A DNA stretch of 64,000 nucleotides. Source: Eledone cirrhosa (Eukaryota). The notes beneath the pieces are model-generated. The model saw only the letters and a program-made list of their open reading frames with translations, ran no database searches and was not told the DNA's origin. A program made the position numbers and the translations under genes. Shown piece by piece: positions 10,276 through 58,214 of this stretch. Location: positions 254,448,001 through 254,512,000 of the forward strand of contig OZ024742.1 in NCBI GenBank assembly GCA_964016885.1, written 5' to 3'. How positions within the stretch are numbered: the stretch's first letter is position 1; each line of letters begins with the position of its first letter.

Positions 10276-10391
10276 TTAATTTACTTCTTGTTTCTTAAGG
10301 TGAGCCTTGACATATATTGTTAGCTGTATCTTATCTACTGAATCACTGGACTTATTAACGGTTTAATTATAAGTTTTGTTTTTTAATGATA

Positions 10392-13300
10392 GAGTTCTAT
10401 TGGCGGTGGTAGAGCAGTATTGGAGGTTGTAGAAGTGTATTGGAGGTGGTAGAGGTGTATTGGAGGTGGTAGAGGTATATTGGAGGTGGTAGAGCAGTAT
10501 TGGAGGTGGTAGAGGTATATTGGAGGTGGTAGAGGTATATTGGAGGTGGTAGAGGTATATTGGAGGTGGTAGAGCAGTATTGGAGGTTGTAGAGATATAT
10601 TGGAGGTGGTAGAGCAGTATTGGAGGTTGTAGAGGTATATTGGAGGTGGTAGAGCAGTATTGGAGGTTGTAGAGGTATATTGGAAGTGGTAGAGCAGTAT
10701 TGGAGGTGGTAGAGGTGTATTGGAGGTGGTAGAGCAGTATTGGAGGTGGTAGAGGTATATTGGAGGTGGTAGAGGTATATTGGAGGTGGTGGAATTGTAT
10801 TAGGGGTGGTAGAGGTGTATTGGAGGTGGTAGAGTTCTATTGGAGGTGGTGGAGGTGTATTGGAGATGGTAGAGGTATATTAGAGGTGGTAGAGGTATAT
10901 TGGAGGTGGTGGAATTGTATTAGGGGTGGTAGAGGTGTATTGGAGGTGGTAGAGTTCTATTCGAGATGGTAGAGGTATATTGGAGGTGGTGGAGGTGTAT
11001 TGGAGGTGGTAGAGATGTATTGGGGGTGGTAGAGATGTATTGGCGGTGGTAGAGGTGTATTGGAGGTGGTGGAGGTGTATTGGAGGTGGTAGAGGTATAT
11101 TGGAGGTGTTAGAGGTATATTGGAGGTGGTAGAGGTGTATTAGAGGTGGTGTAGGTGTATTGTGGGTGATAGAGGTGTATTGGAGGTGGTAGAGTTATAT
11201 TGGAGGTGGTAGAGGTATATTGGAGGTGGTGGAGGTATATTGGAGGTGGTAGAGGTGTATTGGAGGTGGTAGAGGTGTATTGGAGGTGGCAGAGGTGTAT
11301 TGGAGGTGGTAGAGGTGTATTAGAGGTGTAGAGATATATTGGAGGTGTAGAGATGTATTGGAGGTGGTAGAAGAGTATTGGAGGTGGTAGAGGTGTATTG
11401 GAGGAGGTAGAGGTATATTGGAGGTTGTAGAGGTGTATTGGAGGTGGTAGAGTTTTATTGGAGGTGGTAGAGCAGTATTGGAGGTGGTAGAGGTGTATTG
11501 GGGGTGGTAGCGGTGTATTGGAGGTGGTAGAGGTATATCGGAGGTGGTAGAGGTATATCGGAGGTGGTAGAGGTGTATTGGAGGTGGTGGAGGTGTATTT
11601 GTGGTGGTGGAGGTGTATTGCATGTGGTAGAGGCGTATTGGAGGTGGTAGAGGTGTATTGGAGGTGGCAGAGGTATATTGGAGGTGGTAGAGGTATATTG
11701 GAGGTGGTAGAGGTATATTGGAAGTGGTAGATGTGTATTGGAGGTGGTAGAGGTATATTGGAGGTGGTAGAGGTGTATTGGAGGTGGTAGAGGTGTATTG
11801 GAGGTGGTAGAAGTGTATTGGAGGTGGTGGAGGAGTATTGGTGGTGGTGGAGGTATATTGGAAGTGGTAGATGTGTACTGGAGGTGGTAGAGGTATATTG
11901 GAGGTGGTAGAGGTGTATTGGAGGTGGTAGAGGTGTATTGGAGGTGGTAGAGGTGTATTAGAGGTGGTGGAGGAGTATTGGTGGTGGTGGAGGTATATTG
12001 GAAGTGGTAGATGTGTACTGGAGGTGGTAGAGGTATATTGGAGGTGGTAGAGGTGTATTGGAGGTGGTAGAGGTGTATTGGAGGTGGTAGAGGTGTATTG
12101 GAGGTGGTGGAGGAGTATTGGTGGTGGTGGAGGTGTATTGCAGGTGGTAGAAGAGTATTGGTGGTGGTGGAGGTATATTGGAAGTGGTAGATGTGTACTG
12201 GAGGTGGTAGAGGTATATTGGAGGTGGTAGAGGTGTATTGGAGGTGGTAGAGGTGTATTGGAGGTGGTGGAGGAGTATTGGTGGTGGTGGAGGTGTATTG
12301 CAGGTGCTAGAGTTGTATTGCAGGTGGTAGATGTGTATTGGAGGTGGTAGAGGTATATTGGAGGTAGTAGAGGTGTATTGGAGGTGGTAGAGGTGTATTG
12401 GAGGTGGCAGAGGTATATTGGAGGTGGTAGAGGTATATTGGAGGTGGTAGAGGTATATTGGAAGTGGTAGATGTGTACTGGAGTTGGTAGAGGTATATTG
12501 GAGGTGGTAGAGGTGTATTGGAGGTGGTAGAGGTGTATTGGAGGTGGTAGAGGTGTATTGGAGGTGGTGGAGGAGTATTGGTGGTGGTGGAGGTGTATTG
12601 CAGGTGGTAGAGGTGTATTGCAGGTGGTAGAGGTATATTGGAGGTGGTAGAGGTATATTGGAGGTAGTAGAGGTATATTGGAGGTGGTAGAGGTGTATTG
12701 GAGGTGTAGAGATGTATTGGAGGTGGTAGAGGTGTATTGCAGGTGGTAGAGGTGTATTGGAGGTGGTAGAGGTGTATTGGAGGTGTAGAGATGTATTGGA
12801 GGTGGTAGAGGTGTATTGCAGGTGGTAGAGGTGTATTGGAGGTGGTAGAGGTATATTAGAGGTGGTAGAGGTATATTGGAGGTGTAGAGATGTATTCGAG
12901 GTTGTAGAAGTGTATTGGAGGTGGTAGAGGTGTATTGGAGGTGGTAGAGGTATATTGGAGGTGGTAGAGGTGTATTGGAGGTGTAGAGATGTATTGGAGG
13001 TGGTAGAGGTATATTGGAGGTGGTGGAGGTGTATTGCAGGTGGTAGAGGTGTATTGGAGGTGGTGGAGGTGGTAGAGGTGTATTACAGGTGGTAGAGGTG
13101 TACTGGAGGTGGTAGAGGTGTATTGGAGGTGGTAGAGGTATATTGGAGGTGGTAGGGGTATATTGGAGGTGGTAGAGGTGTATTGGAGGTGGTAGAGGTG
13201 TATTGGAGGTGGTGGAGGTGTATTGGAGGTGGTAGAGGTGTATTGGAGGTGGTAGAAGTGTATTGGAGGAGGTAGAGGTATATTAGAGGTGGTAGAGGTG

Positions 13301-14812
13301 TATTGGAGGTGGTAGAGGTATATTGGAGTTGTTAGAGGTGTATTGGAGGTGGTAGAGGTATATTGGAGGTGATAGAGGTTTATTGGAGGTGGTAGAGGTG
13401 TATTGGAGGTGGTAGAGGTGTATTGCAGGTGGTAGAGGTGTATTGGAGGTGGTAGAGGTGTATTGCAGGTGGTAGAGGTTTATTGGAGGTGGTAGAGGTG
13501 TATTGGAGGTGATAGAGGTTTATTGCAGGTGGTAGAGGTGTATTGGAGGTGGTAGAGGTGTATTGGAGGAGGTAGACGTGTATTGGAGGTGTAGAGATGT
13601 ATTAGAGGTGGTAGAGGTGTATTGCAGGTGGTAGAGGTGTATTGGAGGTGGTAGAGGTATATTAGAGGTGGTTGAGGTATATTGGAGGTGTAGAGATGTA
13701 TTCGAGGTTGTAGAAGTGTATTGGAGGTGGTAGAGGTGTATTGGAGGTGGTAGAGGTATATTGGAGGTGCTAGAGGTTTATTGGAGGTGGTAGAGGTATA
13801 TCGGAGGTGGTAGAGGTGTATTGGAGGTGATAGAGGTATATTAGAGGTGGTAGAGGTGTATTGCAGGTGGTAGAGGTGTATTGGAGGTGGTAGAGGTGTA
13901 TTGCAGGTGGTAGAGGTGTATTGGAGGTGGTAGAGGTGTATTGGAGTTGGTAGAGGTATATTGGAGGTGGTAGATGTGTATTGGAGGTGGTAGAGGTGTA
14001 TTGCAGGTGGTAGACGTGTATTGGAGGTGGTAGAGGTGTATTGGAGGTGGTAGAGGTATATTGGAGGTGGTAGAGATGTATTGGAGGTGATAGAGGTATA
14101 TTGGAGGTGGTAGAGGTGTATTGCAGGTGGTAGAGGTGTATTGGAGGTGGTAGAGGTGTATTGCAATGTGGTAGAGGTGTATTGGAGGTGGTAGAGGTGT
14201 ATTGGAGGTGGTAGAGGTGTATTGGATGTGTAGAGATGTATTGGAGGTGGAGGTGGTAGAGGTATATTGGAGATGGTGGAGGTGTATTGCAGGTGGTAGA
14301 GGTGTATTGGAGGTGGTGGAGGTGTATTGTAGGTGGTAGAGGTGTATTAGAGGTGGTAGAGGTGTACTGGAGGTGGTAGAGGTGTATTCGAGGTGATAGA
14401 GGTATATTGGAGGTGGTAGAGGTGTATTGCAGGTGGTAGAGGTGTATTGGAGGTGGTAGAGGTGTATAGGAGGTGGTAGAGGTGTATTGGAGGTGGTAGA
14501 TGTGTATTGGATCTGGTGGAGATGTATTGGAGGTAGTGGAACTGTATTTGAGGTGATAGAGCTGTATTGGAGATTGTGGAGGTGTATTGGTGGTGGTAGA
14601 TGTGTATTGGAGATGTAGAGATATATTGGAGGTGTAGAGATGTATTGGAGGTGGTAGAGGTGTATTGGACGTGGTAGAGGTGTATTAGATCTGGTGGAGA
14701 TGTATTGGAGGTAGTGAAGCTGTATTTGAGGTGATAGAGCTGTATTGGAAGTGGTAGAGGTGTATTGGAGGTGGTTATAGAGTTGTATTAAAGGTTGTAG
14801 CACTGTATTGGT
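10392..14812. repeat. 20-bp G-rich minisatellite, roughly 220 units
   Basis: Consensus TATTGGAGGTGGTAGAGGTG with 18-bp variants (TTGGAGGTGTAGAGATGTA) and degenerate ends. Confidence 0.98.
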
Positions 14813-26679: not shown

Positions 26680-28077
26680 CATCATCATCATCATCATCAT
26701 CAGGTTTAGCGTCCGTGTTCCACGCTTGCATGGGTTTGGACGGGGGTTTTCCCACTTGAGGCAAGAGTGGTAGTCTTGCTCGCATAGGACTGTCTGGCGG
26801 GTTTTCTACAGTTGGATGCCCTTCCTAACACCAACCACATTTACAGTGTGGGGCTGGGAGGTTTTTACCGTGTTGCCTACACGGCCACATTACAGCGTGG
26901 ACTGTCTGGCGGGTTTTCTACAGCTGGATGCCCTTCCTAACACCAACCACATTTACAGTGTGGGTCTGGGAGGTTTTTACCGTGTTGCCTACACGGCCAC
27001 ATTTACAGCGTGGACTGTGTGTTTTTTGTCGTGACACCTACACGATCTCATTTGTTTCGGCCTGGATGTTGTGGGACCAACATAACTTTACATTGAAAGG
27101 GGCGGTGTGGGTGGGGTGGAGGTGGTGGGATGGGGGTGTGTTTTGATAGAGATGCCTACTGACTGTAGTAGGTTTTTACTTTGTATTTAGGTAAGGCGGG
27201 TCTTCTCTATTACTGAGTACCGCCAAAGGTCTCGGTCCAGTGACATTGTCTTGGAGAGGTGTAAGCGTGTGAGGTCGGAATTTATCAGCTCGTCCCATGT
27301 TTTTCTAGGTCTGCCTACTCCGTGGCTACCGTCTATCTTTATTGCCCTGCACTTTGTTATACAGCTGTCGTCTTTCATGCGCATCACGTGACCGTACCAA
27401 CGTAGCCTTCTCTCGAGTAAACAACATCTGATCCCTCTTATTTCTAATTTTTTCCTTAGTTCGTTTATGCTTTGCCGTTCACGTATATTACTATTGCACA
27501 TCCAGCGGAGCATGCAAGCTTCGTTCCTCTCTAGTCTGCGTATATCCTCTGCACACAATGCCCAGGTCTCACTGCCATGCAGCATTGCTGTTCGTATGCA
27601 GGCATCGTATATCCTGCCTTTCATTTTTAGGGAGAACCCTCTAGCGGCTAATAGTGGTATAAGCTCTCTGAACTTTTTCCATCCAGTTCTGACTCTAGCT
27701 ACTGTACTTTCAGAGCACCCTCCCCCACTGCTGATTTTGTCACCCAGATAACGGAAGCTGTCCACTATTTCTATAGAACCCTCTGCACAGTTGAAGGAGC
27801 TAGTATTTTGTGGGCACTTGCTGCTACTTATTGCACCAGAGCACCGGCCACATGTAAAATCTATGTTCTTAGTTAGCTTACCTGTGATCCCACTACATCT
27901 TTTATGCACCCATACTTTGCATTTGGGACATAAAATGGAGTTTCTACCTACGCATATCCTACACACTGAGCATGGCCATTTCCCAGATGGGACCGCCGCC
28001 TTATTTTCTTTCCTACAAACTAGAACTTTAGTCTTAGCCAGGTTAATTTTAAGGCCTTTTGATTCTAGGCCGTGCTT
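26678..28077 (-). mobile_element. RTE LINE, family A, 5'-truncated
   Basis: Open frame from KHGLESKGLKINL to EKTRLT* (27187). 3' UTR carries a 112-bp internal duplication. (GAT)n tail. Confidence 0.96.
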
Positions 28078-28091
28078 ATATATATATATAA

Positions 28092-28167
28092 AAGGGTGTC
28101 CCAAAAAATGTATACACAATTCAACCAAAATTCTAATCAAAATGTGTGAGCATTTTTTGGGGACACC

Positions 28168-28170
<3 letters not shown>
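28092..28170. mobile_element. About 79-bp Tc1/mariner-type MITE
   Basis: TIRs (C/A)AGGGTGTCCCAAAAAATG / CATTTTTTGGGGACACCCTG, flanked by TA repeats. Confidence 0.75.
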
Positions 28171-28245
<75 letters not shown>

Positions 28246-28248
<3 letters not shown>

Positions 28249-29530
28249 TGTCATACCCAAAGACTGGTGCAGCAGTATTCTCATAAATTGCTAAAAAAGG
28301 TAAAGTTGATGCTCTGGAGAGGAGCAATTATAGTGGTATACTGATGGATCAGGTTATGAAAGTGGCAGAAAGGATATTAGCACAACTAATTAGAGTAAGG
28401 TTCAAACTAGATGAGATGCAGTTTGGTTTTATGCCTGGGAAGAGTACAACAGATGCCCTCTTCTTGGTGAGACAATTGCAAGAGTGGTTTTTAGAGAAAA
28501 ATAAGCCACTATACTTAGCCTTTGTTGACCTAGAGAAGGCGTTTGATAGGGTACCCCGATCTGTCATCTGGTGGTCCCTAAGGAAACTAGGTGTTAAGGA
28601 ATGACTTGTGAGGACAGTGCAAACTTTGTACAGAGGTACTCTCAGTAAAGTCAGTGTAGGAATGCAGTTTAGTGAGGAATTTCCAGATACAAGTAGGAGT
28701 ACATCAAGGTTCGGTCCTCAGCCCACTCTTGTTCATTATAGTCCTCCAAGCCATAACAGAGGAGTTTAAGACAGGCTGTCCATGGGAACTTCTCTATGCT
28801 GACGATCTGATTCTTGTAGCAGAATCAGTAGAGGAGCTAGAGAATAAATTTTGGCTATGGAAACAGCAGTTGGAAGCAAGAGGACTGAGAGTAAACCTAG
28901 CTAAGACAAAAGTAGTTTCCAGTACCTAGGAGATCAGATTAGCATGGGAGGAGGGTGTTCCGAGGCCATAGTATCTAGAATAAGGATGGGTTGGAAGAAA
29001 TTTAGGGAGCTGCTTCCTCTGCTGACGAAGAAGGGTTTCTCCCTGCGTACGAAAGGCCGGTTGTATGATGCCTGTGTGAGGAGCGCAATGCTGCATGGTA
29101 GTGAGACATGGGCAGCAACTGCAGAGGATATGCGATGGCTGGAGAGAAATGAGGAAAGCATGCTCCGTTGGATGTGCAGTGTAAATGTGCGTGAATGACC
29201 CAGCATGAATGTGCTGAGAGCGAAACTGTGTCTGAGAGGGATAGAATGTAGTGTACGGGAGAGGAGACTGAGGTGGTATGGACATGTGATGCACATGGAG
29301 GATGAGCGATTGGTGAAGAAGTGCCAGCAAATGCCAGCTGAAGGAAGACATGGTAGAGATAGACCACGAAAAACATGGGCGGAGGTAGTGAGAATAGAAC
29401 TCAGATCATTGAAGCTCACGGTGGAGATGACGAGGAACCGTGACGAGTGGAGAGATGCTGTGCTGAATAAGACCTGTCCCACCCTTGTGAGCAGGGAAGA
29501 GCGGACGTAAAATGATGATGATAATGATGA

Positions 29531-29535
<5 letters not shown>
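28246..29535 (+). mobile_element. RTE LINE, family C, truncated with an internal deletion
   Basis: RT motifs (DLEKAFDRVP, YADD). The PHD region is deleted near 28918 (KTKVV joined to FQYLG). The ORF stop overlaps the start of the (GAT)n tail. Confidence 0.92.
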
Positions 29536-29599
<64 letters not shown>

Positions 29600-29620
29600 T
29601 ATATATATATATATAATAGT

Positions 29621-29810
29621 GGTCGGCGGATTGGCAGTATCGGTAGAGGGTCGGACGCTATGCTTTCCAGCATAGTTACGTCCCTTTACGATCTGAGTTC
29701 AAATCCCGCCGAGGTTGACTTTGCCTTTCATCCTTACGGGGTCGATAAAATAAAGTACCAGTAATGCACTGGGTAATTGCTGGCCTTGTGCCTAAAGTAG
29801 AAACAATTAT
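29621..29810 (+). mobile_element. tRNA-derived SINE family 1, full length
   Basis: A-box TGGCAGTATCGG, B-box GAGTTCAAATCCC. The central block resembles the Deu/Nin-type SINE domain (recalled, unverified). AATTAT tail. Confidence 0.9.
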
Positions 29811-32114: not shown

Positions 32115-32435
32115 TCATCATCATCATCATTTCATTTTACGTCCGCTTTTTCCCTGCTTGCAAGGGTGGGACGGGAACTGATTCTGGCTTGATTTCTACA
32201 GCTGGATGCCCTTCCTAACACCAACCTCATTTACAGTGAGTGCTGGGTGCTTTTTTGACGTGGCACCTGCACGACCACTTTGCAGTGGAATGATATGGAC
32301 CCACAGCTGAGTAAACTGGACAATGTGAAATAAAGTGTCTTGCTCAAGGAAACAACACATTAGCCGGGCTGAGAATTGAACTCACAACCTTTCGATTGCA
32401 AGGCCAATGCTCTAACCACTAAGCCATGTGCCTCC
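32115..32435 (-). mobile_element. tRNA-derived CORE-SINE (family 2), full length
   Basis: A-box TGGCTTAGTGG, B-box GAGTTCAATTC, MIR-CORE-like TCCTTGAGCAAGACACTT...CAGTTTACTCAGCTGT, RTE-derived 3' end and (GAT)n tail. Confidence 0.88.
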
Positions 32436-37874: not shown

Positions 37875-38429
37875 CTTGTTAAATGCATAGACCCATCTCA
37901 ATCATTACCTTCTTGCTAGCTATTTTCAAACCTTAATTCCTAACGTATTTTCAAACCCCAATCCCTAATTCTAGCGTATCTTCAAAACAAAAAAGCAAAA
38001 TCCTTTCCTTCTTCCTTCTTCGAAGGCACGGGGCGGTCAAACGCCTAACACCCACAGCCATCATGTGGCCCCCTACCTTCGCACTCTCTCTCTCTCTCTC
38101 TCTCTCCCTATAAATATATGATAGGAATTCACTTCGCCAAATTTCATTTCTTTGCCTGCTGTCCAAACGAAACTCTCATGTAAACGTAATGTACAGACTT
38201 CATCTCTCTCTCTCTGTCTCCTAGCGTATTTTCAAAACAATCCACATTTCGTATTTCAAGTCCAAATAGCCATTCTATCGCTAAAACAAACTACATTTTC
38301 TGTTTCTATTAAGTGCTAAATACGTTTAGGTTTTTGGACGTATTTAACTGAACAAATTTTGTATTTTTGTTAATCGCTTGTTAAATGCATAGACCCATCT
38401 CAATCATTACCTTCTTGCTAGCTACCCAA

Positions 38430-38531
38430 CACCCCCACGCACCACCATTGCTATTACGTGGACCAATCATAAAACAGAGCCCCCACGTATCACCAGTATT
38501 ATTACGCGGACCAATCAGAAACCAGAGGCCT
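38430..38531 (+). promoter_or_regulatory. Tandem CCAAT-box repeats in the LINE 5' UTR (putative internal promoter)
   Basis: TATTACGTGGACCAATCA and TATTACGCGGACCAATCA in two imperfect tandem units just upstream of the ORF. Confidence 0.45.
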
Positions 38532-38581
38532 ATACTATCGCTTGCCTGGTTGCCTTTCGATATACGATATATGATGGATGG

Positions 38582-41500
38582 ATGGACTGCGGAATCCTGG
38601 AGAGTGGAGGTGAGAGAGAAAAATCTGGACGCTCAGCGACAATGCCAAAGATAAAGACAAATTCACCCCTTGGACGAGAATGCGAGCACTCCTCATTGTT
38701 TCGACCGCGGACGGCTAACATAACCCCATCGCCCCCCGCCCCTCACCGCCCCCAACCCCCAAACGCAATCCAAAACTTCAGAGTTGGTACCATAAATGTA
38801 GGCACCCTAAAGGGTCGCGCTAACGAGGTTGTAGAAATGCTTGAACGTAAGGAGGTCGATGTTTGTTGTATTCAAGAGACCAGGTGGAGGGGTGGGTCTG
38901 CTAGGTTCATTGAGGGTAAAAAACGTTGTTATAAGCTTTTCTGGGTGGGAAACGACGATGGGCTGGGTGGAGTAGGAATCATGGTAGCAGAAAAGTGGGC
39001 AGATAAGATAATAGACGTAAATAGAGTGAACGACAGAATAATTAAAATACGACTTGTCCTCAATAGAACTACGGTGACAGTAATATCTGCGTACGCACCC
39101 CAATCCGGACTGCCCGGCACTATAAAAGACAGATTCTATGAGACACTGATGCTAACTACCTCCCAAATATCCGACAGTGACTATATAATTATCGCAGGCG
39201 ACCTAAATGGTCACGTTGGACAACATTGTGACGGCTACGACGAAATCCATGGAGGCTATGGGTTTGGTACTAGAAATGAGGAAGGCTCCAGAATCCTGGA
39301 ATTCTGTGATGCAAATAACCTAACTATCTGTAACACTAACTTCAAAAAACGTGACAATCACCTGATCACCTATAGATCCGGGGAACACACAAGCCAGGTA
39401 GATTATATCCTTACCAGAAGACGTGACAGAGTGTCTGTTGTTAACACTAAATCCCTCCCCCATGAAGAATGCACCTCCCAACATAGACTGATAATTAGCG
39501 ACCTCATAGTCAGGACGAGACGTACTCGACAACAGAAGAGGACTATCCTCAGGAGGAAAATATGGAAGCTAAAGGACCCCACAGCCAGGAATAAATTTCA
39601 AAGCATATTACTTGATGCTTTCGACAGTAAGGAAGAACATTTAGAGTCGGACAATATAGAGGGAGAGTGGGAATTTCTGAAAGCAAACCTGCTGTTGGCG
39701 ACAGACGAGGTCTGTGGCTGGAGCAGGCCTGTAGGCAGGAGGAGAGTAACATGGTGGTGGAACAGTAAGGTGGAGGGGTCAATTAAGGCCAAAAAGCAGG
39801 CTTGGAAAGTATGGCGGGATGGGGGAAGTAGAGAGGACTATCAAGTGGCCAGGAGGGAAGCTAGGAGACAAGTGTACTTAGCAAGAAGGGAAGCTGAGGA
39901 AAGAAAGTTCAAGCATGTTCTACAACGCGATGACCAAAAACGTGAGGTGTTCAGGATTGCTAGGCAATGCGTCAAGGAAAACCGTGATATTGTCGGGGAG
40001 AAGTGTGTACTAAACGACGATGGCACACTTGCCATCACCGACGCTGATAAGAAGGTAGCTTGGAAGTGTCACTATGAAAGGCTTCTAAATGAGGAGAATA
40101 ATTGGGAGAAAGGCAGTCTCCCCCATATCGACCCAATAGAGGGACCAGCAGTGTTAGTCGAGGGGAGTATAATAAGTAAGGCAATCAAGGATATGAAGAC
40201 TGGTAAGGCGGCTGGGCCTTCGGAAATAGTTGCTGAGATGCTGAAGGCATCTGGCACGGTGGGACACACCATGGTCACCCGCATAGTTAACCAAGTCGTA
40301 CAAAACGGGGTTGTTCCGAAGGACTGGCATAGCAGCATCATCGTTAACTGTTATAAGGGTAAAGGAGACGCCCTAGATAGGAGTAACTATAGAGGCATTA
40401 AATTAATCGACCAGGTCATGAAGGTCACGGAAAGAGTAATAGCGCAACTAATCAGAGAGAGAATTGACCTAGATGAAATGCAGTTCGGGTTTGTGTCAGG
40501 CAAAAGTACCACAGACGCTCTTTTCATAGTACGACAACTACAAGAGAAGTACCTAGCTAAAGGTAAACCCCTCTACTTAGCTTTTGTCGACTTGGAGAAA
40601 GCCTTCGACAGAGTCCCCCGCTCCATTATCTGGTGGGCTCTTAGAAAACTAGGCGTTGACGAATGGCTTGTGAGGGCTATACAAGCCATGTATAAAGAAA
40701 CAGTCAGCAAGGTTAGAATTAACAACGAATATAGTGAAGAGTTTAGCGTAAAAGTCGGCGTCCATCAGGGCTCTGTTCTCAGTCCACTACTATTTATTAT
40801 TGCCCTTCAGGCCATAACAGAGGAGTTCAAGACAGGCTGCCCATGGGAACTCCTATACGCAGACGACCTGACACTCATAGCGGAATCAATGGCCGAGCTA
40901 GAGAAGAAATTCCAAACATGGAAGCACGGCCTAGAGTCAAAAGGACTTAAAATTAACCTGGCTAAGACCAAAGTACTAGTTTGTAGGAAAGAAAACAAGG
41001 CGGCGGTCCCTTCTGGGAAATGGTCGTGCTCGGTGTGTAGGAAAGGCGTAGGTAGAAACTCCATTTTATGTCCTAAATGCAAAGTATGGGTGCATAAAAG
41101 ATGTAGTGGGATCACAGGTAGGCTAACTAAGAACATAGATTTTACATGTGGCCGGTGCTCTGGTGCAATAAGTAGCAGCAAGTGCCCACAAACTACTAGC
41201 TCTTTCAATTGCGCAGAGGGTTCTATAGAAATAGTGGACAGCTTCCGTTACCTGGGCGATAAAATCAGCAGTGGGGGAGGGTGCTCTGAAAGTACTGTAG
41301 CTAGAGTCAGAACTGGTTGGAAAAAGTTCAGAGAGCTTATACCACTATTAGCTGCTAAAGGGTTCTCACTAAAAATGAAAGGCAGGTTGTACGATGCCTG
41401 CATACGAACAGCAATGCTGCATGGCAGTGAGACCTGGGCATTGTGTGCAGAGGATACACGCAGACTAGAGAGGAACGAAGCTTGCATGCTCCGCTGGATG

Positions 41501-41812
41501 TGTAACAGTAATATACGTGAACGGCAAAGCATAAACGAACTAAGGAATAAATTAGAGATAAGAGGGATCAGATGTTGTTTACTCGAGAGAAGGCTACGTT
41601 GGTATGGACACGTGATGCGCATGAAAGTCGATAGCTGTATAACAAAGTGCAGGGCAATAAAGATAGACGGTAGTCACGGAATAGGCAGACCTAGAAAAAC
41701 CTGGGACGAGCTGATAAACTCCGACATCACACACTTACACCTCTCCAAGACAATGTCACTGGACCGAGACCTTTGGCGGTACTCAGTAACAGAGAAGACC
41801 CGCCTTACCTAA
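38582..41812 (+). CDS. RTE ORF: APE endonuclease, reverse transcriptase and PHD-like zinc finger (1076 aa)
   Basis: APE motifs GTINVGTL, CIQETRW, SAYAPQ, GDLNGHVG, DYIL, SQHRL. RT motifs NYRGIKL, QFGF, DLEKAFD, GVHQGSVLSP, YADD. C4HC3 pattern CSVC...CPKC...HKRC...CGRC. The true start may be the downstream ATG (MPKIK). Confidence 0.97.
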   Translation: MDCGILESGGEREKSGRSATMPKIKTNSPLGRECEHSSLFRPRTANITPSPPAPHRPQPPNAIQNFRVGTINVGTLKGRANEVVEMLERKEVDVCCIQETRWRGGSARFIEGKKRCYKLFWVGNDDGLGGVGIMVAEKWADKIIDVNRVNDRIIKIRLVLNRTTVTVISAYAPQSGLPGTIKDRFYETLMLTTSQISDSDYIIIAGDLNGHVGQHCDGYDEIHGGYGFGTRNEEGSRILEFCDANNLTICNTNFKKRDNHLITYRSGEHTSQVDYILTRRRDRVSVVNTKSLPHEECTSQHRLIISDLIVRTRRTRQQKRTILRRKIWKLKDPTARNKFQSILLDAFDSKEEHLESDNIEGEWEFLKANLLLATDEVCGWSRPVGRRRVTWWWNSKVEGSIKAKKQAWKVWRDGGSREDYQVARREARRQVYLARREAEERKFKHVLQRDDQKREVFRIARQCVKENRDIVGEKCVLNDDGTLAITDADKKVAWKCHYERLLNEENNWEKGSLPHIDPIEGPAVLVEGSIISKAIKDMKTGKAAGPSEIVAEMLKASGTVGHTMVTRIVNQVVQNGVVPKDWHSSIIVNCYKGKGDALDRSNYRGIKLIDQVMKVTERVIAQLIRERIDLDEMQFGFVSGKSTTDALFIVRQLQEKYLAKGKPLYLAFVDLEKAFDRVPRSIIWWALRKLGVDEWLVRAIQAMYKETVSKVRINNEYSEEFSVKVGVHQGSVLSPLLFIIALQAITEEFKTGCPWELLYADDLTLIAESMAELEKKFQTWKHGLESKGLKINLAKTKVLVCRKENKAAVPSGKWSCSVCRKGVGRNSILCPKCKVWVHKRCSGITGRLTKNIDFTCGRCSGAISSSKCPQTTSSFNCAEGSIEIVDSFRYLGDKISSGGGCSESTVARVRTGWKKFRELIPLLAAKGFSLKMKGRLYDACIRTAMLHGSETWALCAEDTRRLERNEACMLRWMCNSNIRERQSINELRNKLEIRGIRCCLLERRLRWYGHVMRMKVDSCITKCRAIKIDGSHGIGRPRKTWDELINSDITHLHLSKTMSLDRDLWRYSVTEKTRLT

Positions 41813-43073: not shown

Positions 43074-44768
43074 CGTTTCTGAATTTGTTTAGCAAGATTC
43101 TTTATCTGAAAACGTGTGTTGAAACCGATATTGTTATACTTTGGAGGGTCATGTTGCCAATAAGAAACACACGCACCAGTTGCTCTCACTCCAATTTATT
43201 ATAAATTGAATTTATAAATTTAAGAATTTATAAATTTCTGGTTGGTTGGTTGGTTCCACAACCGGAGGGTTGTTCATATATTGTCAAAGTTCTTTCGTCA
43301 CACATTCTGTGACCTCTTCAGTGACTGGAGATTCTTTTCTTTGTTTTTTGCCTCTCCTTTGTTCTGTCCTACGCCATCTTGTTTTTGTGTGTGTTGTGTG
43401 CTTAGTTTGCACATGTGTTACATCCGGGTGTCTGTGTGTGTTTTTATTTGTTTATTTACATGTTACTGGTTGGTTGTTTGCTCTATGTGTGTGTGTGTTT
43501 TCATTTTGACCTTAATTGTAAGTTGTGATGTTGCTATTCCATTCATGCTTTCTATTTAATTTTGGTTGGAGTTCATTTATGTTTATTGCCTTTGTGATTT
43601 GTCTAAACATTGCGTCTTTTCTGTGTGTAGATTCTATTTTTATTTCTATGTTCTCTAATTTGCCTTTGTGTTCTATTTTAGCATGTTGGTGGAGTATTGA
43701 TGATTCTTTTTTATCTTGAAGCTCTCGCCAGTGTTCATTTAACCGTTCTCCTATACTAGGAGCTGTCTCACCTATATTCTTATCTTTACATTGTCCTTCA
43801 GTACATCTTATGCTATATACTACATTTCTAGTTTTACAGTTAATATGGGGGCTTAGTTTACAGATTATGCATTTCTTATCTATACAGGGAGGTCTTTATT
43901 ATTACTAATAAGTGTTTTTCTGGAGATACCTGGTTTTCTACTATCTTAATATTAAGTTTAAGTTTATCTAGGGCCCTTCTAAATTTGTAAGCTAATTCAC
44001 CTCTAGGGGTTGTGTTGATGAACATTACACTCTGGTATTTATTGCTATCATACCATGAGTTTATTCTATTAACCTTATTCGTAGTTCTTTCTATTCTATT
44101 CCAACATTTGCTCCTATACAAGGGGCAGGTCCCATTTGTATCATTATTTACCGTTTTTTCCCATTTGGTTCTGGCTCCTCTATATACTCTGATTTTATCT
44201 CTCTGATTGTAACCAGAGAACTGCATACGGTGGATGAAGTGTTGTATGTGTCTCTCTAGTTCTTTGGGGTTGCACATGCGGGACACGTTTCTCATCACCC
44301 GTACCAAATCCGCAATCAGTATGTTGATTTTAGTGTGATCCGAAACAGCTGAGTTTCGGTGGATCAGATATTTAGAAGTCATGGGTTTGGCATAATGGGA
44401 ATGGAGGATATGTTTTTTGTTATTAATGGTTTCTAGTACAGGTAATCGATGGTTGGGGTGTTTGCTTGGGTAGTCTATAGTAACTCTAATACTCTGGAGG
44501 ATGGAGTTAGCTATTTGCTGGATGCTTTCCATGGTGTTTTTCTCTAATTCCTGACTGTTCTCTAGTGGGGGTGTTTTTACTACGATGTTTATATCATCAA
44601 CGTAGCGGGAGTACATTATCAGGGTTAAGAGGTTGCTGTCTTCTAATTGTTCTTTAAGTTTAAGTTTAAGTTTATTGTCCCACCATACCATGAATAGGTT
44701 AGCTATGTCACCTGCAATGCTAACACCAATGGCTGCTCCCTCCTCTTGGGCATATGTTTTTCCATTAT
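43071..44768 (-). mobile_element. Penelope-like element: RT C-terminal half, C-terminal GIY-YIG endonuclease, 3' hammerhead motif
   Basis: YNGKTYAQEEGAAIGVSIAGDIANLFMVWWD...YSRYVDD...HYAKPM. After a frameshift: CIIC...NCKTRNVVYSIRC...IGET...RLNEH...LNRKHEW. Both ends abut (TA)n. Confidence 0.9.
43283..43325 (-). ncRNA. Minimal type I hammerhead ribozyme motif
   Basis: GUCA-CUGAAGA-G-GUCACA-gaaug-UGUGAC-GAAA-GAAC-UU-UGAC: 4-bp stem I, 6-bp stem II, intact core. Confidence 0.75.
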
Positions 44769-44779
44769 ATATATATATA

Positions 44780-45281
44780 GTCTATCAAAGTTCTTTTGTC
44801 ACACATCTGTGACATCATCAGTGGTGTTATTATGTTTCCTCCCATGTTATTGCAATGTCTACGCCATTTTTATTTTATTCATTTATTTATATTTATCTCT
44901 GTCTTTGTTTGCACATGCAGTTGCGTGTATATTTCTGTTTGTAGTGCGTGTTCGTGTTTGAGTCTATGTATTTTTCTATTCTATCTTTGTTCACTATTGT
45001 GTGTTTATGTGTGGTTATTGTTATTGTACTTGTGTATATATTTATTTATTTATTTATACTTACCTTTGGTCAGTATTGTGTGTTTGGGTATGGTTGTTGT
45101 TGTTATTCCATTCATTTATTTCTGTTCAACTTAGGTTTTCTTAGTTCTATTTCAGTTGTTTCTCTGATTTGCCTACCTGTTGAATCATTTCTATGTTTAG
45201 ATATTATTTTAATTTCTATATTGTCTATATTATCATCATGTCTTTGTCTGGCATGTTCATATAGAACTGAATTGTCTTTTT
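44780..45281 (-). mobile_element. 3' end of a related Penelope-like element with a decayed hammerhead (44784-44825)
   Basis: SVLYEHARQRH...RQIRE...PKLNR homologous to the neighbouring endonuclease. CUGAUGA-U-GUCACA...UGUGAC-AAAA-GAAC-UU, with the GAAA G mutated. Confidence 0.8.
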
Positions 45282-46924
45282 GTATATATATCTATATATA
45301 TCTATACACACACATATATGTGTGTATGTGGTAACACTCACACACTTATGTGTATATGTGTATACATATGTGTATATATATATAATTATGGATAGATTCC
45401 TGGTGGGTGTCAGGAGGTGACCATAATTAAAAAAGTTTCTCAAAACGTTGATAGAGTATAGACATTATTATATTACATAGAAAAGACTTCTACAAGACCA
45501 GGACTGTTTCATTCATATGAGACCATAAGGAAAGTGATGATTTTTCATATAAATGATAAGCTGCTGATGGCAAATTCTTTTTCTGTCTCTAAGGGTCTTC
45601 ACGTTATTTTATAAGTTATTTTATAGCATCTCTGTGCATGAGCACACCACTCTTTATGTTAAATTTATTTATTTATATATTTATTTATTTTATAGACAAA
45701 TGACTTCTACAAGACTAGAACTTCCTCAACACATGACTAAACAATCTCATACCATTTCTCTTCCAATTATTCTTCAATGCCTCTATTTCTGTTATTCCCT
45801 GTAATTCTGTGTTTGCCTCCTCTCTCTCAGTGATACTTTACTTACCCTCCCACCATTCTCATTTCCATTCTTTCCACCCATCTCTTCTGCTCCACGTTCA
45901 TCACACATGTCTCACTCCCATAAATCATGGCACAATTGACTCCGATTGACTCTGATCGCAATAAAATTATCCTAACATTTAAATAAAAGCTGCCGATGTG
46001 ATTATATGATGATGAAGATCTTTCATCACCTGCGGCTAATCAAAAATATATACATGTTGATTAAAACCACTCATATACTTCTACAGATGAATATTCAGGA
46101 ATAAATATATCATTTATTATGTTGACACAAAATATTGATTATCATTCTGAAATATTTATGAAGCTTATTCCTTCCACATTCATCAGAAATAAAAATAATT
46201 ATGTACGTTAATATAATTTATCAAAATGGGTTTTCGTGTGAAAATTTAGTATGTTTGTATGTGTTATTTTGTATCATATATTCTTATTTTGTATTTTTAA
46301 ATGCATTTCTGGCACAGATAAAGTGTAGATGAGTTTCATATATGCACATATATATGATATAAATTGCATTATAGTGATTGAGATAAAAACGTACTATTGA
46401 ATAATCATGATACAGGTGAAACCGCAGCATTTGAAAAATATTATTTAGATATAAATATCCATAGTTCCCCCACTGATAACAAAAGCTTACATTGAATAAA
46501 TGGGATCATGGAATTGTGTAAATATTTTTTTGTAGAATATCTTGTTCAGAAAACAATGAAAATATGACGATTTATAATAACTCCAAATGAAACAAAAAAA
46601 AAAAAAGAAAAGAAAATGGGCAGTTCACATCTATGCAAGATTAGTTGGTCTCCTACAAAGGTGTATCTCCACAGAGGTTCCAGGAGTACTTTAATGATAG
46701 AGGCTCCCGTCTCTAGTCCTATTAGGAAAAGCAATGTAAAATTAAGTGTCTTGCTGAAGAACATAATGCATGCTCCAGGAATTGAACCCATCATGATCTA
46801 ATAAATTTTAGTCTAAAACCCTAATCATTATTCAATAGGCCTTTCCTAGAATAGCATAATAAGGAATTATTTAATTAAAGATATCAATTACGATAATGCA
46901 TACAATCGTCTTATCTTATAATTT

Positions 46925-49412: not shown

Positions 49413-52400
49413 TCATCATCATCATCATCATCAACGTTTAACGTCCGTGTTCCACGCTTGCATGGGTTTGGACGGGGGTAGTCCCACTTGAGGCAAGAGT
49501 GATTGTCTTGCTCGCATAGGACTGTCTGGCAGGTTTTCTACAGTTGGATGCCCTTCCTAACACCAACCACATTTACAGTGTGGGTCTGGGAGGTTTTTAC
49601 CGTGTTGCCTACACGGCCACATTACAGCGTGGACTGTGTGTTTTTTTGTTGTGACACCTACACGATCTCATTTGTTTCGGCCTGGATGGCGCGGCACCAA
49701 CATAACTTTACATAGAACGGGGTGGTGTGGATGGGGTGGGGGTGGTGGTGGTGGGACGGGGTGTATTTTGTTAGAGATGCCTACTGGCTGGAGTAGGTTT
49801 TACTATATATTTAGGTAAGGCGGGTCTTCTCTGTTACTGAGTACTGCCAAAGGTCTCGGTCCAGTGACATTGTCTTGGAGAGGTGTAAGTGTGTGATATC
49901 GGAGTTTATCAGCTCGTCCCAGGTTTTTCTAGGTCTGCCTATTCCGTGACTACCGTCTATCTTTATTGCCCTGCACTTTGTTATACAGCTATCGACTTTC
50001 ATGCGCATCACGTGTCCATACCAACGTAGCCTTCTCTCGAGTAAACAACATCTGATCCCTCTTATCTCTAATTTTTTCCTTAGTTCGTTTATGCTTTGCC
50101 GTTCACGTATATTACTGTTACACATCCAGCGGAGCATGCAAGCTTCGTTCCTCTCTAGTCTGCGTATATCCTCTGCACACAATGCCCAGGTCTCACTGCC
50201 ATGCAGCATTGCTGTTCGTATGCAGGCATCGTACAACCTGCCTTTCATTTTTAGTGAGAACCCTTTAGCAGCTAATAGTGGTATAAGCTCTCTGAACTTT
50301 TTCCAACCAGTTCTGACTCTAGCTACAGTACTTTCAGAGCACCCTCCCCCACTGCTGATTTTATCGCCCAGGTAACGGAAGCTGTCCACTATTTCTATAG
50401 AATCCTCTGCGCAATTGAAAGAGCTAGTATTTTTTGGGCACTTGCTGCTACTTATTGCACCAGAGCACCGGCCACATGTAAAATCTATGTTCTTAGTTAG
50501 CTTACCTGTGATCCCACTACATCTTTTATGCACCCATACTTTGCATTTAGGACATAAAATGGAGTTTCTACCTACGCCTTTCCTACACACCGAGCACGAC
50601 CATTTCCCAGAAGGGACCGCCGCCTTGTTTTCTTTCCTACAAACTAGTACTTTGGTCTTAGCCAGGTTAATTTTAAGTCCTTTTGACTCTAGGCCATGCT
50701 TCCATGTTTGGAATTTCTTCTCTAGCTCGGCCATTGATTCCGCTATGAGTGTCAGGTCGTCTGCGTATAGGAGTTCCCATGGGCAGCCTATCTTGAACTC
50801 CTCTGTTATAGCCTGAAGGGCAATAATAAATAGTAGTGGGCTGAGAACAGAGCCCTGATGGACGCCAACTTTTACGCTAAACTCTTCACTATATTCGTTG
50901 TTAATTCTAACCTTGCTGACTGTTTCTTTATACATGGCTTGTATAGCCCTCACAAGCCATTCGTCAACGCCTAGTTTTCTAAGAGCCCACCAGATAATGG
51001 AGCGGGGGACTCTGTCGAAGGCTTTCTCCAAGTCGACAAAAGCTAAGTAGAGGGGTTTACCTTTAGCTAGGTACTTCTCCTGTAGTTGTCGTACTATGAA
51101 AAGAGCGTCTGTGGTACTTTTGCCTGACACAAACCCGAACTGCATTTCATCTAGGTCAATTCTCTCTCTGATTAGTTGCGCTATTACTTTTTCCGTGACC
51201 TTCATGACCTGGTCGATTAATTTAATGCCTCTATAGTTACTCCTATCTAGGGCGTCTCCTTTACCCTTATAACAGTTAACGATGATGCTGCTATGCCAGT
51301 CCTTCGGAACAACCCCATTCTGTACGACTTGGTTAACTATGCGGGTGACCATGGTGTGTCCCACCGTGCCAGATGCCTTCAGCATCTCAGCAACTATTTC
51401 CGAAGGCCCAGCCACCTTACCCGTCTTCATATCCTTGATTGCCTTACTTATTATACTCCCCTCGACTAACACTGCTGGTCCCTCTATTGGGTCGATATGG
51501 GGGAGACTGTCTTTCTCCCATTTATTCTCCTCATTTAGTAGCCTTTCATAGTGACACTTCCAAGCTACCTTCTTATCAGCGTCGGTGATGGCAAGTGTGC
51601 CATCGTCGTTTAGTACACACTTCTCCCCGACAATATCACGGTTTTCCTTGACGCATTGCCTAGCAATCCTGAACACCTCACGTTTTTGGTCATCGCGTTG
51701 TAGAACATGCTTGAACTTTCTTTCCTCAGCTTCCCTTCTTGCTAAGTACACTTGTCTCCTAGCTTCCCTCCTGGCCACTTGATAGTCTTCTCTACTTCCC
51801 CCATCCCGCCATACTTTCCAAGCCTGCTTTTTGGCCTTAATTGACCCCTCCACCTTACTGTTCCACCACCATGTTACTCTCCTCCTGCCTACAGGCCTGC
51901 TCCAGCCACAGACTTCGTCTGTCGCCAACAGCAGGTTTGCTTTCAGAAATTCCCACTCTCCCTCTATATTGTCCGACTCTAAATGTTCTTCCTTACTGTC
52001 GAAAGCATCAAGTAATATGCTTTGAAATTTATTCCTGGCTGTGGGGTCCTTTAGCTTCCATATTTTTCTCCTGAGGATAGTCCTCTTCTGCTGTCGAGTA
52101 CGTCTCGTCCTGACTATGAGGTCGCTAATTATCAGTCTATGTTGGGAGGTGCATTCTTCATGGGGGAGGGATTTAGTGTTTACAACAGACACTCTGTCAC
52201 GTCTTCAGGTAAGGATATAATCTACCTGGCTTGTGTGTTCCCCGGATCTATAGGTGATCAGGTGATTGTCACGTTTTTTGAAGTTAGTGTTACAGATAGT
52301 TAGGTTATTTGCATCACAGAATTCCAGGATTCTGGAGCCTTCCTCATTTCTAGTACCAAACCCATAGCCTCCATGGATTTCGTCGTAGCCGTCACAATGT

Positions 52401-55827: not shown

Positions 55828-56012
55828 CGGTGGATTGGCAGTATCGGTAGAGAGTCGGAGGCCATGCTTTCCAGCATAGTTACGTCCCTTTGCGGTCTGA
55901 GTTCAAATCCCGCCGAGGTTAACTTTGCCTTTCATCCTTACGGGGTCGATAAAATAAAGTACCAGTAATGTACTGAGTAATTGCTGGCCTTGTGCCAAAA
56001 GTAGAAACAATT
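55828..56012 (+). mobile_element. SINE family 1 copy with target-site duplication
   Basis: A and B boxes plus core. ATTATTTTAATTA duplicated at 55815-55827 and 56010-56022. Confidence 0.9.
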
Positions 56013-56125
56013 ATTTTAATTAGTATTTTTCAATCTAGCTAACTTGGTCATTTGCAATACAAACACTTATATACTTGTATTAGTGTTTATCCCTATCATA
56101 TATTCATTTGTATATATATATATAT

Positions 56126-56450
56126 ATATAAGTTAAAACAATGAAATAAAAAATCAAGTCATTAGAGATATACTTCACTGCTTTACGATCGTTTCTAGAT
56201 GGTGATAATACATTGTATCTATACTCAGTTATTGATCTATGTAAGTTTACAAACTATCAGATAGATTGGTTTGAAAACAGCTGGTGATATGCATGTAAGT
56301 AAATATTCTCTCTATCTGATAGTTTGTAAACTTACATAGATCAATAACTGAGTATAGATACAATGTATTATCACCATCTAGAAACGATCGTAAAGCAGTG
56401 AAGTATATCTCTAATGACTTGAATTTTTATTTCATTGTTTTAACTTATAT
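56126..56450. repeat. Fold-back palindrome, 140-bp arms, 45-nt spacer
   Basis: 56126-56265 is the reverse complement of 56311-56450 with one visible mismatch. Confidence 0.97.
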
Positions 56451-56573
56451 CATGACTCTGTTTTCCTTTTAATGTTTTATTGTTTTCTGAGATTTATCTT
56501 AACCTACAACATTTTCAACATATGAATTACATTGAGTTCATACAGAATAGACCCCACAACTTACAGTGGATAC

Positions 56574-56617
<44 letters not shown>

Positions 56618-56657
56618 ATGATATTAAATAAATGGAAACTATATTTATAAAACCATA

Positions 56658-56722
56658 TGTATTCTGTTATATATATTTCAAGGGTACCAAAACTTTGGTA
56701 CGCTATCATCAGATAAAATACA
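56658..56722 (-). ncRNA. Minimal type I hammerhead ribozyme motif
   Basis: UGUAUUUUAU-CUGAUGA-U-AGCGUACCAAA...UUUGGUACCCU-U-GAAA-UAUAUA-UA-ACAGAAUACA. Confidence 0.7.
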
Positions 56723-56845
56723 AAGTTTGTTTCATAAATATTGACATATCCAGGAAGAAGATCTTCAGAAATCTTGTCGAGTGCTTCGAATCAGTTATAA
56801 ACATATATATTTGTTGAATTACCAACAAATTAAATATCCCTTTTG

Positions 56846-56899
<54 letters not shown>

Positions 56900-56977
56900 G
56901 AAGGTGAGTAATATTGTAGAACAATGAGACTATGCATATATCAGATAAGTAGCACTCAACTGTTGGTAGAACTGGAG

Positions 56978-57325
56978 TATATATAATAAAGAAGAAATTA
57001 AAAGATGGTTAAAAGGGTTCCATATATTTTATTATGCGCATTTTGAATACAAAATCATCCTGGGACAAAAATTGTGTTCTCATCAGATAAAATAAGGTAA
57101 CATGATATGAGGCATAATAGCACTTGTTTACAGGAAAGTGCTAAGTCTACATATCGACTTAGCATTTTCCTGTAAACAAGTGTTATTATGCCTCATATCA
57201 TGTTACCTTATTTTATCTGATGAGAACACAATTTTTGTCTCAGGATGATTTTGTATTCGAAATATGCATAATAAAATATATGGAACTCTTTTAACCATCT
57301 TTTTATTTCTTCTTTATTATATATA
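56978..57325. repeat. Fold-back palindrome, about 170-bp arms, 8-nt loop
   Basis: Symmetric about CTAAGTC-TACATATC-GACTTAG (57141-57162), with a few mostly transition mismatches. Confidence 0.97.
57209..57278 (+). ncRNA. Minimal type I hammerhead ribozyme motif in the right palindrome arm
   Basis: UAUUUUAU-CUGAUGA-GAACACAA...UUGUAUUC-GAAA-UAUGCA-UA-AUAAAAUA: perfect 8-bp stem I, 7/8-bp stem II, predicted cleavage after 57270. Confidence 0.8.
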
Positions 57326-58214
57326 TATATAAATGGTAAACAGAAATAACAACACAATTAATATATATATATATACATATATATAGGCAAAATAGAAAGA
57401 AATGCTAAGAATCATGATAAACATGAATATTAAAAGCATGAGAGAACAAGTACACATATCAATATTTAACACATAATTCTGAGAAAAGAAAATTCCAGTC
57501 ACCCAAATATTTCACAAATTCCAATTCCAACTTCATTGTTTCAGCCATTAGCCCAGGCATCACCATCCACAATGCAGAGAAGCAGGGTATAACTAAATAC
57601 TGGGCTTTGACTAAACATTTCCTTTTCTGTCCTGGTTGCCAATTTACTTTGTTGCTAGACTGATAGTTTGCTCCACAAATATGGGAGGTGGACATCCTGT
57701 GTTAGGAAAAAACTCCATGAATGGGTATTGCTAACCGTTTTCTTTGACAATGTTTTTGCCCTCTTGTCCACGAGGCACAGCTGAATCACCTCTCAGCAAA
57801 TGGTGGAGAGTTTGCCCTGGCCCGTCTCCATTTCTCCCCCTCCTCTTTTAAAACTATTATATTTAGCAGCATAGGGTTATGGCCTTTTACGTTCTGAGTT
57901 CAAATCCCGCTGACGTTAGCTTTGCATCCTTACAGGGTCGATAAAATAAAGTACTAGTAATGACTGGGTCATTTTAATCGACTATCCCCTCCCCAAAATT
58001 GTTGGCCTTGTGCCTAAATCAGAAAACATTATATTTACTTCTGCTACATATTTGTCCTTTTTTCTTTCTTCCTGTTCATAATTATATACAACTAAATAGG
58101 AAATTTTAATTTACAGGTGAAATAAATTTAACAACACCTAATTTACAGAACACATTAGACACAAAATTACAAGATTGGAAAAAATCTTTCAGAATATTCA
58201 ATGAACATTGCAAG

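Follow-up and report, generated by a model that had tools for sequence, protein, structure and literature searches.

Three short inserts clustered within 1.2 kb (positions 56126-57325) of the 64,000-nucleotide stretch of DNA analysed here, which we call the window, are most probably (probability about 0.88) short 5'-truncated insertions of three autonomous families of Penelope-like elements (PLEs) with Hydra-clade motifs, likely placed successively in one (TA)n tract by target-primed reverse transcription. Judged by sequence, each insert is the 3' end, made up of pLTR, hammerhead motif and 'tail', of a different PLE family (F1, F2 and F3 for inserts 1, 2 and 3). The three share one plan, in which two 5'-truncated pieces lie head-to-head inside (TA)n, one ending at the pLTR end and the other, which carries the tail, at the tail end. 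The initial annotation of this region was right about the Penelope-like origin, the type I hammerheads with palindromic helix III and the (TA)n context, while its 'unrelated non-coding inserts' come from the ends of three PLE families that are coding and have endonucleases related to one another (37% over 298 aa between the C-terminal ORFs of F1 and F2).

Insert 1 is flanked on its left by a (TA)10 target tract (56111-56130; no strand is assigned to this or the other tracts). Its left piece (56130-56265, minus strand) is the last ~136 nt of the F1 pLTR, without tail and without the 5' half of the hammerhead core. Its right piece (56270-56446, plus strand) is the last ~177 nt of the same pLTR, is 99% identical to many genomic copies, and carries a putative type I hammerhead variant (56271-56400, plus strand) composed of the core UUGAAAA with U3-A8 (56271-56277), a helix II arm of ~103 nt, GAAA (56381-56384), the palindromic CGAUCG, UA (56391-56392) and the 3' strand of stem I (56393-56400). 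The F1 tail of ~135 nt (56447-56580, plus strand) stands at the right end of the insert only. A (TA)16 tract (56581-56612), common to inserts 1 and 2, precedes the last ~150 nt of the F2 pLTR (56613-56762, minus strand), which is without tail and holds a hammerhead motif running from CUGAUGA (56712-56706) through the UA that ends at 56668. The inverted piece of insert 2 (56765-56847, plus strand) consists of F2 tail only and breaks off ~8 nt before the pLTR end, so insert 2 is not a hairpin, contrary to the initial annotation, in which each insert would yield a long dsRNA hairpin. After a (TA)24 tract common to inserts 2 and 3 (56848-56895) comes the F3 tail (56897-56977, minus strand), from which the left piece of insert 3 (56978-57147, minus strand) runs on without a break; in its hammerhead motif GAAA has become AAAA and the hexamer UGCGCA is intact. 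The right piece of insert 3 (57156-57325, plus strand) is without tail and ends in TA repeats, and its motif runs from CUGAUGA (57217-57223) through the UA ending at 57270, with an 8-bp stem I and a hexamer decayed to UAUGCA; a short TA run follows. The parts in the window are ordered as arm, junction and arm plus tail in F1, as inverted tail, junction and arm in F2, and as tail plus arm, junction and arm in F3.

Both near-perfect fold-backs of the initial annotation, with arms of 140 and 170 bp, were confirmed. The inverted arms of insert 1 (56126-56265/56311-56450) are 140 nt long and 99% identical, with 1 mismatch, and those of insert 3 (56978-57147/57156-57325) are 170 nt long and 95% identical. 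The annotated position next to (TA)n tracts also held for all inserts, and the annotated extents held for the arms, beyond which the inserts reach by the three tails located above. The insert 3 arms differ at 8 of 170 sites, seven of them by transitions, a divergence similar to that between unrelated F3 copies (identity 0.959 within and 0.951 between loci, 17 pairs), and the arm divergences suggest that F1 is the youngest and F3 older. A further one of the three families was present within 500 nt at 3 of 80 loci and within 1.5 kb at 10 of 80; three families in 1.2 kb are thus uncommon, yet as expected from repeated targeting of TA tracts.

The arms are not single-copy, with 1743 (F1), 1891 (F2) and 2792 (F3) first-look candidates in the 3.0-Gb genome, counts for which 40 candidates were scored per family. 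Walking upstream in other copies, we found 1-2 kb of 3' UTR and then an ORF for a GIY-YIG endonuclease. Among 30 endonuclease loci used to link F1 to its ORF, all 30 had the same 3' UTR start, 22 the F1 upstream UTR and 10 the F1 arm within 1.5 kb; at two of them (L128 and L130) the UTR start is joined instead to an F3-like end (80%), which may be either a nested insertion or a chimeric family. For F2, endonuclease, UTR and arm followed in that order at 12 of 30 loci, and for F3 the link was found at loci L091-L094, of which L093 also has the ORF start, DKT and RT motifs. The F3 tail sequence lies in L093 ~75 nt ahead of the ORF start codon, F3 being the one family for which the origin of the tail was traced. 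The order RT then endonuclease was seen in L093, as RT homology upstream of the endonuclease in F1 loci including L110, L123 and L131, and as RT-thumb-like sequence ahead of the endonuclease in the F2 locus L184/L292; DKT and, where the clade has RWK, RWI are present in F3, and the N-terminal RT of F1 and F2 was not recovered in linkage. The CxCX5C linker reads CNCRNRSIC in F1 and CNCRIKSNC in F2, with CxxC and CxH present and CCHH absent; in F3 it reads CNCPIR in L030 and its second Cys is altered in three other copies. A TA run directly follows the arm end at 53 of 80 loci, the other 27 continuing otherwise, mostly into the tail. No intact full-length copy of F1, F2 or F3 was found among the loci examined, and a 3.25-kb tandem at C4:267.44 Mb, considered as full-length F2, proved to be a duplicated genomic segment without the ORF. 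This tandem duplication (L287, L288) carries F2 fold-backs and is the single case seen of a copied fold-back junction.

The Hydra clade is defined in PMC8557442 by the CxCX5C linker, CxxC and CxH, the lack of CCHH and insertion in (TA)n, and a family from Octopus bimaculoides, Hydra-1_Obim, is among those described there. Our assignment to this clade is by motifs, compared by eye with the text and supplement of that paper, and points to a shared C-terminal GIY-YIG, CxCX5C, CxxC with CxH, absence of CCHH, (TA)n targeting and a hammerhead near the 3' end, with DKT seen in F3. Unlike in the clade as described in PMC8557442, the 3' UTRs here are ~1-2 kb long, those of F1 and F3 containing microsatellite stretches, and the Hydra-1_Obim hammerhead of its File S2, with an 8-nt loop 2, matches none of F1, F2 and F3. 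With a Hydra-type endonuclease as query, the genome yielded 62,527 loose first-look candidates, so that the clade looks far more abundant here than the single octopus family in PMC8557442, and many further hammerhead families with hexamer palindromes are present in the flanks of the loci. Hydra-type PLEs thus seem very abundant and to form a major repeat class in this genome.

A coding element at 43-45 kb had been proposed as the source of the inserts but is not, as it has no DNA match to the inserts, gives blastp E values of at least 2.8 against four Hydra-type ORF pieces and has the CCHH-type endonuclease, which Hydra elements lack. The region (43080-45300, minus strand) contains an unrelated PLE in two truncated pieces. 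They comprise an RT at 43879-44781, an endonuclease of the CxxC/CCHH type with a frameshift, and two pLTR ends; these ends carry a short hammerhead that has a 4-nt insert in helix III, the copy at 44.8 kb being without G12. Its best homolog is an Octopus vulgaris protein (66%), and its motifs look Nematis-like. Elsewhere in the window, LINE copies at 38393-41812 (plus strand), 49811-52204 (minus strand) and 27187-29698 (minus strand) have a PHD-finger match just after the RT domain in the ORF, and the first of these has a 1139-aa open frame with an APE endonuclease. Further repeats are a 20-bp minisatellite of ~220 copies with extreme G skew (10390-14775), a tRNA-like SINE head at the Rfam threshold (32361-32433) and very abundant short interspersed repeats (55879-56017 and 57876-58035), presumably the octopus OK-type SINE.

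The architecture of the inserts recurs across the genome. In every family the tail (80-135 nt) follows the pLTR end in some copies, and among insertions with both ends resolved, 43 of 46 had a tail on one piece only (P=5e-10 against 50:50; 90 loci, of which 48 were resolved and 2 removed as duplicates, 42 having no resolved partner within 1.5 kb). A second set, picked by a 64-67-nt 3' probe and sharing at least 3 insertions with the first, gave 31 of 36 (P=1e-5). Of its 90 loci, 8 were left out because they were second arms or belonged to the window, and 11 gave no alignment; 9 of these 11, re-examined, were all longer than 200 nt, the other 2 being tandem duplicates of L277, and such loci were counted as long copies in the length tallies and left out of the 31/36. 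The one-tail rule is near-strict, with exceptions at 3/46 and 5/36. Insertions ending within 200 nt make up 16/26 in F1, 20/27 in F2 and 21/27 in F3, and 30 of 80 Hydra-type insertions are self-contained hairpins with arms overlapping by at least 50 nt. The 5' ends are concentrated at -157 to -180 in F2 (15/20, P=3e-8) and at -152 to -178 in F3 (12/21, P=2e-4), both windows having been chosen post hoc, and weakly in F1 (10/16, P=0.015, with at least 2 rows being subfamily alignment ends). An apparent F3 hotspot at -164 was in part an artefact of the reference copy, and the analysis was redone with two references and short probes. The hotspots at about -175 (F2) and -165 (F3) sit at the 5' edge of a predicted RNA hairpin, and run-off from a transcript starting in the upstream pLTR would explain a 5'-end hotspot.

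These features would follow from a proposed course of events. The protein of the element would nick the (TA)n tract on both strands, and the 3' ends so formed would prime reverse transcription at two start sites, the pLTR end and the tail end. Both cDNAs would stop early, mostly 150-190 nt in, and then be joined head to head. A tail-primed cDNA that reads on into the pLTR would give a hairpin, as in inserts 1 and 3, and one that stops before the pLTR an inverted tail plus arm, as in insert 2, while the TA repeats left on either side of each insertion would be targets for the next. On this view the hammerhead would simply have come along with the pLTR of the parent element, and in any read-through transcript the hairpin would mask it. 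In vitro, according to PMC11167929, the protein of an Anolis PLE cuts AT-rich DNA on both strands and extends each of them, and its RT starts at two sites bounding the tail, with hammerhead cleavage not needed. That the two nicks prime at the two sites, one each, is what we infer, because start-site use showed no strand difference in that study.

The initial annotation regarded the fold-backs as a non-autonomous element system, that is, as units transcribed and re-mobilised whole by a Penelope RT. Short units do predominate in all three families, F2 and F3 show the 5'-end pile-ups described above, and both outer ends are common to the best 30 matches of insert 2. The fold-back junctions of inserts 1 and 3, however, each have a single match in the 3.0 Gb when up to 1 mismatch is allowed, the 'shared 5' end' of F2 is the end of the inverted tail with an internal junction that varies from copy to copy, and the inverted units range continuously from ~0.2 to ~4 kb, grading into units that include the ORF. 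Insert 2 was also considered as a fixed-length SINE-like unit and rejected, its 5' part being the inverted tail. The window has none of the retrozyme arrangement, in which direct repeats stand in tandem and every unit contains a hammerhead, and a whole unit including its junction, as expected of a fold-back family, was not found repeated at many loci. Because the junctions are unique and locus-specific, the fold-backs are insertion products and not units of transposition; the replicating reading is already largely refuted and we hold it to be highly improbable. A single cDNA might instead fold back on itself and be copied, with no joining of two primed cDNAs. In its favour, many pairs have near-equal 5' stops (-174/-175, -172/-171, -189/-187), RNA hairpins lie at the F2 and F3 hotspots, and arms are more alike within than between loci in F1 (0.979 vs 0.925, 9 pairs) and F2 (0.971 vs 0.952, 15 pairs), a difference that we read as a shared source subfamily, with some gene conversion possible. 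Such snap-back cannot, however, give tail-only inverted pieces without arm overlap (insert 2, L035, L049, L051, L055, L138, L157, L161, L014 and L016) or very unequal pairs such as -174/-531, and the tail-only partners, several of them ending less than 10 nt from the pLTR end as in the F2 copy of the window, fit two-site priming and not pure snap-back. We therefore regard snap-back as unlikely overall, while near-equal arm lengths and the within-locus identity of F1 and F2 leave room for it, or for a single template, in some cases.

Could the palindromes be assembly or library artefacts, or the cluster be kept for a host function? The insert 1 arms differ at only one site, and the exact insert 1 junction was unbridged among the matches listed from 8 public runs, in which repeat copies dominated the contigs and RAD reads. 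Against an artefact, the 8 differences between the insert 3 arms have a decay-like spectrum, both hairpins are asymmetric in a family-specific way, with one tail, and a contig of run X2 has a different F1 fold-back junction (56227 to 56270); taken together, the F3 arm decay, the one-sided tails and the second F1 junction argue that the structures are real, and an artefact is extremely unlikely. A functional dsRNA source, or an RNA-cleavage signal for a host transcript, would draw on the near-perfect 140-170-bp duplex that either hairpin is predicted to form if transcribed, on the exceptionally high hyper-editing and near-perfect dsRNA potential of octopus, and on the heavy editing of Penelope in lizard (both as presented in PMC5625713). 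The arms, however, decay independently with compensatory changes absent, every hammerhead of the window carries lesions, and a scan of the 8 longest complex ORFs of the window recognised no host exon, these ORFs being retroelement or unassigned. A retained function is very unlikely; incidental ADAR editing, if the region is transcribed, is plausible, and selection is not indicated.

We next consider the hammerhead motifs themselves. The F2 and F3 families have an ordinary type I motif with core CUGAUGA and a palindromic hexamer, which is UAUAUA at 75 of 90 F2 loci. Among 60 F3 loci it is UGCGCA at 32, in agreement with the ancestral hexamer initially proposed, and another hexamer at 12, the remaining 16 being without a full core match. 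The claim that all three inserts carry the motif stood in part: the relaxed motif as first given occurs 3 times in 56126-57325, beyond chance at a mean of 0.012 and a maximum of 2 in 3000 dinucleotide shuffles, and 0 times elsewhere in the window, but one insert 1 sequence, present on both arms, accounts for two of these occurrences. The CUGAGUA core assigned to insert 1 has only 2 of 6 stem I pairs; the actual core is the UUGAAAA that lies 77 nt upstream at 56271-56277. With a strict descriptor requiring core, stem I and stem II there is 1 match, in the right arm of insert 3, a number reached by 0 of 2000 shuffles. No Rfam hammerhead family matched at gathering level in the window, nor at E up to 10 in 56000-57450; the 43 Rfam matches in that interval, to miRNA-hairpin and similar models below threshold, were rejected as shape matches.

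None of the window copies has the full intact family motif (core, stems and palindrome). In the F1 copy the 5' strand of stem I is cut by the junction and the left arm is without the 5' core; the F2 copy departs from its family by two stem changes, a U.U pair in helix II, at its base, and a mismatch in stem I; in the F3 copy the left arm carries G12A, and the broken palindrome of the right arm weakens the predicted dimer helix to -5.1 from -10.5 kcal/mol. A 'ribozyme on either strand' is not supported for any insert, insert 2 having one arm only. In addition, transcripts of the two hairpins have predicted folds of -225 and -259 kcal/mol, and transcription of either strand reaches the antisense arm before the ribozyme arm, which would then be captured; such a double ribozyme is thus unlikely.

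The F1 motif departs from the ordinary type. Its GAAA-CGAUCG-UA lies at the same distance from the 3' end as the F2 and F3 motifs, and the 5' core UUGAAAA lies ~103-105 nt upstream of GAAA, with an 8-bp stem I closing the structure, a long folded helix II arm between (95-116 nt in the F1 lineage) and a C.A mismatch at the base of helix II. A stem I and core are present in 37 of the 97 distinct GAAA-CGAUCG-like motifs examined, and at positions 3 and 8 these 37 are U3-A8 in 26, C3-G8 in 10 (2 from shorter families), U/U in 1 and crossed in 0; the chance of such a stem I in shuffled upstream sequence is 0.001. In 13 copies 90.6% of stem I cells are paired and 6 of 9 pairs have double changes, a score reached by 0 of 500 shuffles, the 13 rows forming two related groups so that this covariation represents a few events and not 13. 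RNAalifold recovered the same stem I unprompted and most of the long arm not as a common helix, and individually 18 of 19 representative arms (two of the 19 from shorter families) fold at -12 to -44 kcal/mol. A 32-nt pattern over the F1 core has 790 exact genome matches, and its control 0. A sister lineage (L066:11-319, L141, L046, L096, L100, L247 and L287) has the same long helix II arm with a canonical CUGAAGA and a stem I that is changed but paired; in L066 the motif is held as a fold-back pair. Covariation with C3-G8 relatives thus supports a candidate F1 core of U3-A8 with a long helix II arm. U3-A8 hammerhead cores are natural and active (PMC4209133, PMC3088659), and the Hydra hammerheads listed in File S2 of PMC8557442 are all C3-G8 with loops of 10 nt or less.

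In the features tested, the inserts correspond by sequence to the insertion unit of EN+ PLEs. The units in PMC8557442 likewise have a pLTR, an adjoining inverted 5'-truncated copy, a tail at one end and a preference for (TA)n; that paper presents such an inverted copy, together with a one-sided tail, as a general feature of PLEs (Craig et al. 2021, PMC8557442), and Penelope-13_HM (File S1) is annotated with a 5'-truncated inverted copy, as here. Their tails are 30-40 bp long in that paper, against 80-135 nt here. Most insertions here have less than 200 nt per arm, and the one-tail rule has been counted. In the twin priming of L1, two primers on one element likewise produce an inverted 5' piece, but that piece is without a duplicate of the 3' end, which is often present here. 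In PMC4209133, dual min-HHRs on opposite strands, 100-700 bp apart, are ascribed to PLEs that have been truncated. Penelope remnants that form hairpins and contain hammerheads are thus a by-product already described, the pattern being in print in PMC4209133 and PMC8557442. PLE hammerheads already described share the type I fold and a palindromic helix III needing a dimer, and a U3-A8 variant is known in Schistosoma, but their helix II is 6-8 bp against the long arm of the F1 lineage, in which both C3-G8 and U3-A8 occur. Non-LTR retrozymes, as described in PMC7229834 and bioRxiv 10.64898/2026.07.22.740005, are also ORF-less, PLE-related and equipped with a type I hammerhead, but are head-to-tail tandem repeats with a hammerhead per unit, whereas the inserts are head-to-head single insertions with unique junctions. 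A literature search that had most subscription papers and Repbase outside its reach turned up no paper that describes PLE hammerheads with a long helix II, counts tails to give a one-tail rule or treats PLE hairpins as cephalopod editing substrates; the supplements of PMC4209133 and PMC11167929 may bear on these points.

Counting tails in the genome lends support to the two RT start sites observed in vitro, and how PLE inverted structures arise becomes a testable question. The candidate long-arm U3-A8 hammerhead would extend natural hammerhead architecture and indicate what current searches miss. A more speculative proposal, which we consider doubtful, joins these points: the young F1 lineage may have a working hammerhead with a ~100-nt helix II arm and a U3-A8 core, missed by standard descriptors, which could explain some 'HHR-less' or 'half-core' PLEs, and coupled two-site priming, by making hairpins of about one third of Hydra-type insertions, might be a large unrecognised source of octopus dsRNA and hyper-editing. 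Hydra-type elements are in this respect a candidate supply of ADAR substrates.
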